Source: an uncultured archaeon (GTDB lineage: Archaea; Iainarchaeota; Iainarchaeia; Iainarchaeales; GCA-2688035). Taken from it: a DNA stretch of 64,000 bases. The DNA is taken from positions 81,743-145,742 of the forward strand of contig CAZXIC010000002.1 in assembly GCA_964640195.1 (NCBI GenBank), given 5' to 3'. The first letter of the stretch is position 1. Each line of letters opens with the position of its first letter. Positions 35,330 to 39,160 of the stretch are shown one piece after another. The position numbers and the translations under genes were made by a program. The notes beneath the pieces are model-generated. The model saw nothing but the letters and a program-made list of their open reading frames with translations. It made no database searches and was not told the DNA's origin.

Positions 35330-35809
35330 TTACTTTTTATAGGAATCCGAAAGCTTTGCGAGAACCTTTGCGATGTCGTCCATTGCAGCGTTCGCAGGCT
35401 GCTTTATCCAATAGCTGAAAGATTCCTGCAAGCTGTCCGGCTCTGCGTAGGGGCTGTTGTTGATGAAATACCTGTTGCTCTTCCTCTGCAGCAGTTCCAA
35501 GTCAATCAGCTTGTTCAGATGATAGCGCAGCAGTTTCTCGCTTATTTTTTTGTGGTACCTGCTGTCAATGTACGCCTGCAGCTCTGCTGTCGTCGGCCTC
35601 TGTTTCTTTGCAAGGAGGAAGTGGAACAATGCATCCAAAACGTTCAGGGCAGTGTCCCTTGACTCCTGCTCTGACAGCAGGCCGAACGAAAGGGCAAACC
35701 AGCGCAGCAGGCTGCGCTTTGTCAGCTGCACGCTGGGCGGCAGGTCCATTTTCTTGATGACAAAGGTTTTTCTCACAAGCCCTGCTTCCGGAAGCGCCAT
35801 AAAGACCAC
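35330..35809 (-). CDS. Putative winged-helix DNA-binding protein
   Basis: 'ISEKLLRYHLNKLIDLELLQRKSNRYFIN' is a wHTH-like segment. ATG 35800 is an alternative start. TATA-like ATTATGTATAC lies upstream. Confidence 0.5.
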   Translation of the reverse strand: MVFMALPEAGLVRKTFVIKKMDLPPSVQLTKRSLLRWFALSFGLLSEQESRDTALNVLDALFHFLLAKKQRPTTAELQAYIDSRYHKKISEKLLRYHLNKLIDLELLQRKSNRYFINNSPYAEPDSLQESFSYWIKQPANAAMDDIAKVLAKLSDSYKK

Positions 35810-35953: not shown

Positions 35954-36310
35954 ATGATTGAGGTCAAGACAAAGTTCACTCCTTTCAGGCTGAAGCTGGC
36001 GCGGAAAGAGCCTGTGCAGCTGGCTGTTGAGCTGGTTAACAAAAACCCGGAAAATGCGATGCTGTCTCTGAACCTTGAACTCGGGGCGTGTTTCAGCCTG
36101 GAGAAAAGCGGTTACAAAACAGGCGCGGCTGAGCAAATCCCGGAATTGAAGCCGGGGGAAAGCAAGAAATTTTACTACGAGCTGTGGCCAAAGCACAGCA
36201 TCAGGGTTGGAGCGGCAAAAATCAGGCTAACTGTCCTAGAGCACTACCAGAACTTCAATTACGTTAAAAAAGAATACAAGAAAGGCCCTGAACTGATTGT
36301 TGAGGAATAA
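35954..36310 (+). CDS. Hypothetical beta-rich protein
   Basis: 118-aa ORF with an alternating pattern suggestive of a beta-sandwich. No motif recognised. Confidence 0.5.
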   Translation: MIEVKTKFTPFRLKLARKEPVQLAVELVNKNPENAMLSLNLELGACFSLEKSGYKTGAAEQIPELKPGESKKFYYELWPKHSIRVGAAKIRLTVLEHYQNFNYVKKEYKKGPELIVEE

Positions 36311-36313
36311 AAT

Positions 36314-39061
36314 TTACTGCAATTTCTTTTTCTCCAATTCAAGCAGATGGATTTTCTCCCTGTACTCGAAAAGCTTCTGCCTGAAATAGTCCTCTTTTAT
36401 TGTCTGCTTGCAGAACTCTGTTTCAAGGTTCTGCACCATATCCCTGAGCTTTGCGATTTCCGCATCAATTTCCTGCAGCCTGAGCCCTGCCTCAACGGGC
36501 TCAGCTGGCTTCCCTGGCTTGGCAAAAAGCCCCATCAGCTTGGCCGGCAGCATTGAAGCGCTGACTGCAGTTTTATGGGCAGCATACCTGGACTCAGAAG
36601 GCAGCCTTTTCCAGGCAAGGACATGCCTCTTCCTCTCAGTGCTTATTTCCGCAGCTGCCTTCCGCATCTCCTTCTCATGCATGGAAATCTGCTTCTCCAG
36701 TTCACGCCCCTGGGCCTTTCCCTTAACAACGGCTTTCTGCAGCTGCGCTTTCTTTTTCGCAATTGCAAGGCTGCCCCTCTTGTGTTCCAGGAAAAACAGC
36801 TTGTGCATTCTCTTAAGCATATACAAGGCAAACAGTATCACGACAAGCAGAACAAGCAGCAAGGCAATCAAGAAAATAGGCAGCGGCGCATAAACAGCGA
36901 AGGGAAAAGAGGTTGTGCCTTTGTTCCCCAATGAATCAATTGCGGTAATTACAAGCGCAGCTTCAGGCAGGTCTTTGTCGGAAAACACGTAATGCCCGGT
37001 GAAAACATTGCCGTCCTGCTGCAACGGGATGGAAACTCCGTTCAGGACAGCATTCACGTCAGCGCCTGGCACAGCAGCGTTGTTGGCGTAAACAAGCTGG
37101 AACTTAAACTCAAGCTTCTCGCTGACGGACACCTTAAGCTCCTTGGGTTGGAGGAGAACTGCCTTGATTGCCCCTGCATTAATGTCAAGCGTCAGCTCCT
37201 GCAGCCCTGCCAACTCGCCCTTTGCAGCAAAAAAGGAAAAGCTCTGCTTGCCGATGGGAAGGTCAACTGGCACAACATAGCTTCCGGTGTAAGAGCCGTT
37301 TCCGAGGTCCTGCAAATCAATTCCGTTTCCGTAAGCGTCTGTAAGGGAGATTGCTGCACCTTCAATAGGCTCTCCCTCAAGGTCTGTTACAAGCACGTTC
37401 AAGTCAATCGCCTGACCCCTTAAAACAGTGTTGAAGTCAGTGAGGAGCTCGATTGACAACTGCTGCTGCCCTGTATGGGTGCAGGCAGCAGAACAGGTGC
37501 CAGGAGAAAGGCATTCATCCAATGTTATCGGATTCTGGTCATCGCAGTCAGCAGTGCTGCTGCAGGCAATTGTGCAAGGTGTGTTTGAGCAAGAGGCTTC
37601 ACAAGTGCCAGCATTAAGGCACTTGTCGAGGGTCTGGGGGTCATCGTCAAAGCAGTCGCCGTCACCGCTACAGGCAACAGTGCAACCAACGTTGGCGCAA
37701 TACGAATCGCACTGCCCGGGAAAAAAGCAGTAATCACTGGTTGCCTCTATACCGTCATCACAGTCAGCATCAGCTGTGCAAGCAACAGTGCAAACAGTAT
37801 GCGTGCAGTTTGCATCGCAGGTTCCAGCATTATTACATACATCCACTGTCTCAGTGCTGTTGTCATCGCAGTCTGCGTTGCTGTAGCATGCGATTGCGCA
37901 AAGCGAGCTGCTGCAGTTTGCATCGCATGTGCCTGGGTTCAAACAAACATCGACAGTCATAGCGTTGCTATCATCGCAGTCGGCGTTGGCGTCGCATGCA
38001 ACAGTGCAGGCAATTGGCGTATTAGCGCAGTTTGCATCGCATGTGCCTGGGTTCAAACAGGTATCGGTTGTAAGGCTGTTGCTGTCATCGCAGGCAGAAT
38101 CAGAAGTGCATTCAATGGAACAGACAGTGTTGGAACAACTGGCAGAGCAGGTGCCTGGATTGAGGCAAACGTCAGTTGTAAGGGAATTGCTGTCATCGCA
38201 GGCAGCATTATTGTCACACGCGATATCGCACACAGTATGGGAGCAGTTTGCATCGCATGTGCCTGGGTTCAAACAGGTATCGGTTGTAAGGCTGTTGCTG
38301 TCATCGCAGGCAGAATCAGAAGTGCATTCAATGGAACAGACAGTGTTGGAACAACTGGCAGAGCAGGTGCCTGGATTGAGGCAAACGTCCACTGTTAAGC
38401 TATTGCCATCGTCACAGTCAGCGTTTGCATCGCATGCAATCATGCAGTAGCTGAATGTTACGTCTGCTGACGTGTCATCGTCATCGCCTGTTTCGCTGAT
38501 AAAGAAGTTGCCGCTGCCTGTTGCTGCATCGCTGCCTGTTGAAAGGACAAAATAAAAGCTTTCACTGCCGCCGCTTTTCTCAATTCTGCACTGGTCAACT
38601 GTTGGCAGGGCACACAATACGTCATTGCCGCTTAAAGAGGGTGTTCCAGCCTTATAGGTCGTATCATCCAAACAGCCGCAGTATGAAACAGTTGCATCTG
38701 AGCCTATTACATCATTTGCTGCATAAACGTTATGGAAATTGAATTGGTCTGGATAGCCGTGTTGAAACCAATCACTGTTTGAAATAGTCAGCTCAAAGCG
38801 GTAATCGGTACTTCTCAACAAATTGGTATCGCATGCTGCGCTTGCGCCAGTGACATCAATGCCTGTGCATACTGCTGTGCCACTCCCTATAACAGTGCTG
38901 CCGCTTTGAAAAACACCCAAAGAGTCAATTGAGTAATTTGGAGCAGGGGCAAGAAACAGGGAAAAAAAGCCAGCTGGCTGTCCTGGCGCAGAATACAGAA
39001 GCAGGAAAAGCGCTGCAATGGCAAGGGCAGCGGCTGCCAGGACTGCAATGCTTTTGTTCAT
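36314..39061 (-). CDS. Large type-I membrane surface protein with about 10 tandem Cys-rich repeats and a cytoplasmic coiled-coil tail
   Basis: N-terminal signal/TM. Repeats of C-x3-C-x5-C-DD-x8-C-x5-C-x3-C ('ACDDSNSLTTDxCLNPGTCxAxCS') followed by an Ig-like region. TM 'LPIFLIALLLVLLVVILFALYML' and a basic/coiled C-tail. Confidence 0.85.
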   Translation of the reverse strand: MNKSIAVLAAAALAIAALFLLLYSAPGQPAGFFSLFLAPAPNYSIDSLGVFQSGSTVIGSGTAVCTGIDVTGASAACDTNLLRSTDYRFELTISNSDWFQHGYPDQFNFHNVYAANDVIGSDATVSYCGCLDDTTYKAGTPSLSGNDVLCALPTVDQCRIEKSGGSESFYFVLSTGSDAATGSGNFFISETGDDDDTSADVTFSYCMIACDANADCDDGNSLTVDVCLNPGTCSASCSNTVCSIECTSDSACDDSNSLTTDTCLNPGTCDANCSHTVCDIACDNNAACDDSNSLTTDVCLNPGTCSASCSNTVCSIECTSDSACDDSNSLTTDTCLNPGTCDANCANTPIACTVACDANADCDDSNAMTVDVCLNPGTCDANCSSSLCAIACYSNADCDDNSTETVDVCNNAGTCDANCTHTVCTVACTADADCDDGIEATSDYCFFPGQCDSYCANVGCTVACSGDGDCFDDDPQTLDKCLNAGTCEASCSNTPCTIACSSTADCDDQNPITLDECLSPGTCSAACTHTGQQQLSIELLTDFNTVLRGQAIDLNVLVTDLEGEPIEGAAISLTDAYGNGIDLQDLGNGSYTGSYVVPVDLPIGKQSFSFFAAKGELAGLQELTLDINAGAIKAVLLQPKELKVSVSEKLEFKFQLVYANNAAVPGADVNAVLNGVSIPLQQDGNVFTGHYVFSDKDLPEAALVITAIDSLGNKGTTSFPFAVYAPLPIFLIALLLVLLVVILFALYMLKRMHKLFFLEHKRGSLAIAKKKAQLQKAVVKGKAQGRELEKQISMHEKEMRKAAAEISTERKRHVLAWKRLPSESRYAAHKTAVSASMLPAKLMGLFAKPGKPAEPVEAGLRLQEIDAEIAKLRDMVQNLETEFCKQTIKEDYFRQKLFEYREKIHLLELEKKKLQ
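38027..38389. repeat. Perfect 147-bp direct duplication at 216-bp spacing inside the Cys-rich-repeat gene
   Basis: 38027-38173 and 38243-38389 read identically. A 33-bp partial third copy starts at 37913. Confidence 0.9.
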
Positions 39062-39160
39062 TCCACACTATATACATATTAATTGGTATTTAAAAGTAGC
39101 TTTGGGTGCGATCTCCAAGATAAGAAACAATTAAATTCTGGCGAACACAAAGGATATTTA

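Follow-up and report, generated by a model that had tools for sequence, protein, structure and literature searches.

The window analyzed here is a stretch of 64,000 nucleotides of archaeal DNA (assembly GCA_964640195.1, contig CAZXIC010000002.1, positions 81,743 to 145,742). On its minus strand, at 36314–39061, lies an open reading frame that encodes a conserved surface protein of 915 residues, P0001, with full-length orthologues (P0002–P0012) that are 47–58% identical to it in alignment. A full-length AlphaFold2 (AF2) model was built with 15 family members. The sequence and the model agree on a type-I layout, in which a signal peptide and an N-terminal head are followed by a stalk of nine Cys-rich units, two Ig/MG-like domains, a transmembrane helix and a cytoplasmic tail. 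This is in line with a preliminary description of the DNA, made from the letters alone, which had taken the product for a membrane surface protein with a Cys-rich stalk. Taken as a whole, the protein is probably a stalked adhesin or receptor, with conversion tracts in its repeat array. All features of the gene described below are on the minus strand.

Residues 1–25 (38987–39061) form a hydrophobic segment, visible in the sequence and modeled by AF2 as a hydrophobic helix, that would serve as a signal peptide or an anchor. The signal peptides of several orthologues end in AFA, CFA or AFG, which are of the AxA type, and are followed by a conserved xYSxD at the start of the head. The head of P0001 (residues 40–205; 38447–38944) contains six Cys and is rich in beta-strands, which AF2 places at residues 43–205 with pLDDT confidence scores of ~75–85. 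It has no Pfam match. Two unrelated head types occur in the family: in P0007, P0008, P0012, P0016 and others, a Cys-rich N-terminal module of the form CGNGxC...DCC takes the place of the beta-rich head.

The stalk is followed by two tandem Ig/MG-like beta-sandwiches (residues 535–725; 36887–37459; pLDDT ~90). In Foldseek, the pair matches titin Ig pairs, the MG domains of complement and A2M, and SiiE BIg, with E-values of 2e-9 to 1e-7; the Pfam matches of the region stay below the cut-offs (CarboxypepD_reg, 17.9 versus 32.3 bits; Big_1, 14 versus 34.9 bits). A homologue search with residues 535–915 alone returned close orthologues only. The transmembrane helix (residues 729–752; 36806–36877) is evident in both the sequence and the AF2 model, where the helix that starts at residue 729 runs on past the membrane to the cytoplasmic side, and the positively charged stretch KRMHK...KKK right after it implies that the tail is cytoplasmic and that the repeats lie outside. 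An Ig-like segment, a transmembrane helix and a cytoplasmic coiled coil had been anticipated downstream of the repeats; AF2 and Foldseek agree with this order, with the refinement that the Ig-like segment consists of two domains.

The tail (residues 753–915; 36317–36805) is helical or coiled-coil according to AF2 and the alignment, and its last 60 residues constitute a helical hairpin (AF2 residues 854–914; 36320–36502; pLDDT ~88–92). The hairpin carries the motif NLExEFCKQTIKEDYFRxKLFEYREKIHLLELEKKK, which in this family is conserved better than any other non-Cys part. Conservation over the last 60 residues equals that of the repeats (57–58%), compared with 37% for the proximal tail. No library model covers the C-terminal motif; it bears some likeness to SHOCT-type helices, but Pfam gave no such match and the likeness is not claimed here. 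A CdvA-like coiled coil (PF18822) was also considered for the tail and discarded. The match scores 19 bits (E 0.0015) against a cut-off of 30 bits, and weak PF18822 matches occur in 7 of 20 tails amid many unrelated coiled-coil families, which points to coiled-coil composition and not to a link with cell division.

Full-length orthologues are present in about 11 of the 23 sampled genomes of the same family, and a five-unit profile detects repeat arrays in 34 of the 151 genomes of the phylum sample. More distant members of the protein family include P0016, P0018 and P0021. The number of units ranges from 5 to 9 across the family and is mostly 8, with 9 in P0001; the copy number of the repeat therefore evolves, as had been suspected. 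The repeat Cys are invariant in 12–15 orthologues. A literature search on Cys-rich surface proteins of DPANN or Diapherotrites archaea returned nothing specific.

The six-cysteine unit and its relatives

The stalk (residues 206–531; 37469–38446) is composed of nine tandem units, delimited by sequence pattern, AF2 and profiles. The units follow the pattern C-x3-C-x5-C-[DF]D-x8-C-x5-C-x3-C and have a length of 36 residues in eight cases and of 38 residues in one. In the frame used by the preliminary description, every unit, the first and the last among them, contains exactly six Cys, for a total of 54 in the array. The six-Cys pattern given there stands, whereas the estimate of about ten units comes down to nine. 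At the DNA level, Tandem Repeats Finder detects a period of 108 bp.

The repeats gave no sequence match in Pfam, NCBIfam or the PDB, even at E ≤ 10, with the whole protein, with fragments or with a unit profile. The repeat had been described as unlike any recognized family, a view that has to be revised, because a relation to Dicty_CTDC (PF00526) emerges, albeit below the Pfam threshold. Several of the bacterial homologues are true Pfam matches of Dicty_CTDC, among them P0075 at 60.4 bits and P0087 at 52.1 bits. In BLASTP, P0001 aligns unit-on-unit over approximately nine units with P0075 (E 4e-33) and P0087 (E 1e-33). In this alignment, CDDSNSLTTDTC stands over CNDGNACTTDSC. A profile comparison of the HHpred type had been proposed as a check; performed with hhalign on 40 archaeal units against 17 PF00526-type bacterial units, it yields a probability of 96.3% and an E-value of 1.8e-9 over 26 columns. 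PF00526 is below threshold in two archaeal relatives (16.5 and 20.1 bits). The nine contiguous units of P0001, located between a signal peptide and a transmembrane helix, form a tandem array in an extracellular region, as is found for PF00526. On sequence criteria, the six-Cys unit is an uncurated 36-residue variant of the Dicty_CTDC-like repeat superfamily.

Both kinds of repeat form tandem arrays with a period of ~33–36 residues in extracellular proteins, and both share the core C-x5-C-[DN]-D-x-[ND]-x2-T-x-D-x-C-x3-G, which continues as C-x-N-P-G in the P0001 type. One difference concerns the Cys of the Dicty_CTDC N-x-C-T element, which precedes the conserved Thr (unit position 13). This Cys is absent from all nine units of P0001, where L, M, E or A takes its place, and is found in 4 of 351 aligned units, the commonest residue being L (189 of 351), then S, A and T. 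P0001 units have instead two other Cys, C-3 and C24. The loss of the Cys before Thr and the presence of C-3 and C24 imply that the disulfide wiring must differ from that of Dicty_CTDC. The first Dicty_CTDC repeats to be described came from Dictyostelium, where they are part of structural proteins of the extracellular matrix. In 2021 the family was listed among the repeat families without a known structure (PMC8078820).

A search of 1.84 billion representative proteins with the unit profile finds 669 proteins at E ≤ 1e-3, of which 72 reach E ≤ 1e-30. The matches include proteins of 4,351 and 6,297 residues with 24–27 units. The retrieved units display three Cys patterns: a four-Cys unit of 34 residues (538 units, the commonest), the six-Cys unit of 36 residues (245 units) and the Dicty N-x-C-T type. 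The 34-residue unit lacks both C-3 and C24, whereas the 36-residue unit has both. Proteins with the four-Cys variant (P0110, P0111, P0113, P0115) are the top matches of the unit profile. They are uncharacterized, comprise 2,150–6,297 residues with up to 27 units, and share the core DCDD-x-[ND]-x-[LY]-T-x-D-x-C-x-N-P-G-T with P0001, but their units are joined to Big_7, Big_13 and Glucodextran_B domains and they lack the membrane anchor made of two Ig-like domains, a transmembrane helix and a coiled coil. The unit-bearing proteins examined also contain subtilase, PKD, RCC1, FGE-sulfatase, Big, CARDB, VWA or MG2 domains. The pairing of the unit with so many unrelated domains argues for a general extracellular spacer.

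Other candidate families were examined and rejected. The DUF4215/Myxococcus cysteine-rich repeat (PF13948; C-x2-G-x-C-D-D-G-N-x3-G-D-G-C) has no match in P0001; in P0058, a PF13948 match spans residues 314–360, outside the stretch that resembles the P0001 units (residues ~380–560). The CysRRep repeat (bioRxiv 10.64898/2026.06.07.730663) has another Cys spacing, Cx6-9Cx5-7Cx8-11Cx7-8CC, and is a different repeat. Ferredoxin-like and metacaspase matches in phmmer (E 0.3–0.5) were attributed to Cys and Asp composition.

Modeling of several units with AlphaFold had also been suggested, and the AF2 model of units 5–9, computed with 12 orthologues, is a confident one (pLDDT 88.1; three of the five models above 86). 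Each modeled unit consists of a one-turn helix over xADC and two beta-strands that follow it. The five-unit model has no Foldseek match at E ≤ 0.001 in the PDB or BFVD. None of the top PDB matches is significant: the first is to the Entamoeba Gal/GalNAc lectin, in its Cys-rich region (E 0.18), and TNFR-type modules follow (E ~3), with CD40 and GITR at E ~3–9 and TM-scores of at most 0.3. An identity as a TNFR- or EGF-like disulfide module was rejected, as no significant structural similarity to PDB entries was obtained. TNFR Cys-rich domains and the heavy chain of the Entamoeba lectin form rods of ~35–40-residue modules with three disulfides each, and in them the rod connects a binding domain to a membrane anchor. 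With respect to P0001 this is an analogy only, the similarity being non-significant in sequence as well as in structure (E 0.18 to 3; TM-score 0.12–0.2).

Probable disulfides and alternative chemistries in the stalk

Each unit would contain three disulfides. The extracellular location of the units, the even number of invariant Cys and the paired gain and loss of Cys all argue for this arrangement. C-3 and C24 are both absent from the four-Cys unit, which is the pattern expected if the two residues form an extra bond, and they probably pair as a third intra-unit disulfide in P0001. A Ca2+ site made up of the invariant residues D, N/D, T and D is speculation.

It is also conceivable, though very improbable, that the Cys units bind metal or carry thioether cross-links, for instance from the radical-SAM genes at 40.7–44.2 kb of the window. 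These genes lie 1.7–5 kb from the surface gene, no VKOR and no DsbA-like gene was found above the Pfam cut-off in the genome, and the invariant D, T and D beside the Cys could act as ligands or acceptors. In another archaeon, a methanogen, a Cys-rich repeat protein has been described that receives thioethers from a radical-SAM enzyme, the CrpA/CrpC system (PMC13692751). The repeats of P0001, however, are extracellular, being located between the signal peptide and a transmembrane helix with a positive-inside tail, and the even invariant number of Cys per unit and the co-occurring extra pair fit disulfides. The nearby radical-SAM genes belong to the SPL-like and the B12-binding type; a SPASM domain was not detected in them, and they are missing from the orthologous loci. 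Because the cassette is not conserved at these loci and lacks SPASM, its link to the surface gene was rejected. A system of the CrpA/CrpC type was likewise discarded: no radical-SAM gene is adjacent at the orthologous loci, and the N-terminus of the protein is a signal peptide and is not leader-like. The genome, in which neither VKOR nor a DsbA-like protein is matched above the cut-off, still encodes 54 invariant extracellular repeat Cys.

The 147-bp tract within the array

The array contains an exact duplicate of 147 bp at an offset of 216 bp. Copy 1 (38243–38389; residues 225–273) covers the 3' part of unit 1 and most of unit 2, and copy 2 (38027–38173; residues 297–345) covers the 3' part of unit 3 and most of unit 4. 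A third exact copy of 33 bp (37913–37945) encodes CLNPGTCDANC of unit 5, for which 0 matches are expected in shuffled sequences. The coordinates of the two long copies, the offset and a partial third copy of 33 bp had been reported in the preliminary description, and the comparison reproduces them in full. The identity is maximal, as it extends not one base further on either side, and takes in unit 2 (or 4) from its first base to base 96 of 108. The flanks fall abruptly to ~55–60% identity on both sides. Over whole units, DNA identity is 96% between units 2 and 4, 78% between units 1 and 3, and 50–70% for all other pairs. Since the flanks and the other unit pairs are only ~50–70% identical, a run of 147 exact bases cannot be due to chance.

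Exact tracts between units are found in the orthologues as well, in independent assemblies; their lengths are 47, 58 and 71 bp and their offsets 108 or 162 bp. It thus seems that concerted evolution is characteristic of the family. P0009 and P0011 (L009 6001–8571) have in addition small in-frame duplications of their own inside units, where CTDPGLCSATCTDPGLCSAS and SLTVEICSDGDTCAAAC occur twice, accompanied by exact DNA tracts of 49–58 bp at offsets of 51, 111 and 162 bp.

The tract of P0001 probably originated by intragenic gene conversion between units that are not adjacent, namely units 1 and 2 on one side and units 3 and 4 on the other. Such an event would explain the sharp borders, and the 33-bp copy in unit 5 would be a second, shorter conversion tract. 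The preliminary description had proposed recent unequal recombination, that is, that the tract is the remnant of a 216-bp tandem duplication of two units, by unequal crossing-over or slippage, in an array whose length is polymorphic in the population. We consider this origin rather unlikely. The offset equals exactly two units, P0001 has nine units compared with eight in most orthologues, and P0009 and P0011 provide examples of internal duplication. A two-unit crossover would nevertheless leave 216 contiguous identical bases; in P0001, 147 of these are unchanged and 69 are only ~55–60% identical, with sharp borders between them. Moreover, a crossover of this kind would add two units, and the gain over the orthologues is of a single one. 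Judging from the anatomy of the tract, gene conversion fits better than a plain two-unit duplication.

An assembly artefact, in which a short-read repeat was mis-resolved and the true array is shorter, longer or a mixture of strains, is highly unlikely. The source is a metagenome-assembled genome (MAG) in 36 contigs, and an exact repeat of 147 bp exceeds the usual assembly k-mers, so that extra loops of 69 bp plus 147 bp could have been collapsed. By reasoning, though, the unique 69-bp spacer requires the repeat on both of its sides in the reads, and hence at least two copies in some genome. The reading frame and the six Cys of every unit are intact, and the independent assemblies of the orthologues show the same kind of exact tract. 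An assembly error would be more likely to understate the repeat than to create it, through the collapse of 216-bp loops, in which case the true array would be longer.

Function, genomic setting and paralogues

The arrangement of the protein suggests how it could work. A Sec-type signal peptide would export the ectodomain, and the beta-sandwich head (residues 40–205) would be held off the membrane by the nine units and the two Ig/MG-like domains. As the unit is a spacer in many unrelated extracellular proteins, its most likely role here is that of a rigid stalk. On this cross-linked stalk, the variable head would be displayed so as to adhere or to bind a ligand; the swappable head would be the binding tip, lifted beyond the envelope. 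On the inner side, the cytoplasmic coiled coil of ~160 residues may oligomerize the protein or couple it to an intracellular partner. A host-attached lifestyle of the archaeon, as proposed in the preliminary description, would be consistent with such a protein.

Several observations weigh against the reading as a disulfide-stabilized, conversion-marked adhesin or receptor. P0001 does not reach the gathering score of PF00526 (27 bits) and, whole or in fragments, is missed by that model even at E ≤ 10, which leaves it outside strict membership of the family. In the genome, which is 88% complete, no VKOR and no DsbA-like (Thioredoxin_4) gene passed the Pfam cut-off. Enzymatic disulfide formation is thus unsupported, although the absence constitutes weak evidence at this completeness. 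Finally, a duplication did occur in the past, as most orthologues have one unit fewer, and it may be entangled with conversion.

The main functional rival of an adhesin or receptor is a structural part of the envelope, such as an S-layer anchor or a pillar that sets the quasi-periplasmic width. The gene is a conserved single-copy gene at a conserved housekeeping locus, and its product combines a C-terminal transmembrane anchor, membrane-proximal Ig-like domains and a rod-like stalk, all of which would suit a pillar; the Dicty_CTDC repeats, in addition, were first known from structural matrix proteins of Dictyostelium. Against this role, about half of the family genomes sampled lack the protein, which is also patchy across the phylum sample (34 of 151), its coiled coil is cytoplasmic and is not an extracellular stalk, and the family swaps its head between two unrelated types, as is more typically seen in a ligand-binding tip. 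On balance, the envelope role seems unlikely.

P0001 is new and uncharacterized within the broad class of stalked surface proteins. Dependence on contact with other cells is assumed for DPANN archaea, and almost none of their surface proteins have been characterized; the gene provides a concrete candidate that is conserved and clearly modular in construction. Its stalk module belongs to an extracellular Cys-rich family of at least 669 protein clusters, some of them above 6,000 residues, that current domain libraries have missed and for which a link can be drawn to the Dicty_CTDC repeat, itself structurally unsolved. All of these proteins would become annotated through a curated model together with a single solved structure. 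The unit is an uncatalogued variant within a known repeat superfamily and does not overturn current understanding. The sharp 147-bp tract offers a clean case of concerted evolution inside a coding repeat.

The genome that carries the surface gene is a MAG of 1.19 Mb in 36 contigs with a completeness of 88%. The neighborhood of the gene encodes the archaeal D-aminoacyl-tRNA deacylase DtdA (Pfam E 3.5e-61), and the nearest named homologues of P0001 come from MAGs labeled Candidatus Diapherotrites archaeon. Both findings agree with the archaeal origin assumed from the sequence, and the host of the gene is a Diapherotrites/Iainarchaeota-like DPANN archaeon. Upstream of the gene, a TATA-like box, TTTTAAATA, can be read at 39087–39095 (minus strand), with a putative promoter function. 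The 3' end of the box is 26 nt upstream of the start codon, with a second TATATA at −14 to −9. This spacing suggests that the transcript is leaderless or has a very short leader.

A gene for a protein of 118 residues (35954–36310, plus strand) converges on the surface gene, and the stop codons of the two are 3 bp apart. It occupies the same position and orientation beside the orthologues P0008 and P0011, where its counterparts are 71% and 49% identical to it, respectively. The 118-residue protein has no Pfam match and no signal peptide, and may be a partner of the surface protein, which it exceeds in conservation. At 35330–35809 (minus strand), a protein of 159 residues is encoded that has weak winged-helix matches (HTH_12, HTH_20, ArsR-like). 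The orthologous loci carry genes for 156–157 residues in its place, and the loci around P0008 and P0011 match the window in having the 118-residue gene, the winged-helix gene and DtdA. The same neighbors at orthologous loci imply that the surface gene is chromosomal and vertically inherited, and is not the cargo of a mobile element.

Paralogues of 400–930 residues that share the two Ig/MG-like domains and the transmembrane helix are found in the same archaeal order (for example, at L011 and L012); neither such a paralogue nor its locus was detected in the genome of P0001. Their Ig/MG-like domains score ~23.4–23.9 bits against MG2, for a cut-off of 32.8 bits. As in the P0001 family, they have a cytoplasmic coiled coil, here a short one, with a motif resembling Y-F-x2-G/K-x-[IL]-x5-Y, and some contain three or four of the same Cys units (L011, 929 residues). 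They differ from P0001 in their ectodomains, in a far shorter tail and in their occurrence as tandem pairs. The tails of the paralogues carry the related motif LQxxYFxxGxIxxxxYxxLxxxYExEL, which P0016 and P0021 carry twice.

At L012 (G003:C3:4000–16500), in a related genome, the paralogues form two tandem pairs of 599 and 395 residues and of 594 and 404 residues. These pairs flank genes for a KaiC-like ATPase, a T2SSE-type ATPase and a T2SSF-type membrane protein, which by their predicted products are an assembly locus like that of type-IV pili or archaella. The L011 locus, in another genome, has three tandem paralogues without KaiC-like, T2SSE or T2SSF genes.

A more far-reaching picture, which we put forward with little confidence, would bring these elements together. 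The six-Cys and four-Cys units would share a small, structurally unsolved disulfide-rich fold, and the protein would be a DPANN-specific transmembrane tether with a swappable head on a cross-linked rod, possibly stabilized by Ca2+ (DCDD-x-N-x2-T-x-D). The hairpin of the tail would couple this tether to an intracellular partner, either the 118-residue neighbor or a type-IV-pilus-like ATPase machinery, the latter being a candidate because the loci of the paralogues hint at it. The array would be homogenized by frequent gene conversion.

A homology search of the genome of P0001 revealed a second trace of the repeat, a weak match to one single unit, and no other. It is located at G000:C1:89428–89553 (L002), within an open frame of 1,645 residues, and the unit-like segment is 45% identical to residues 381–422 of P0001.

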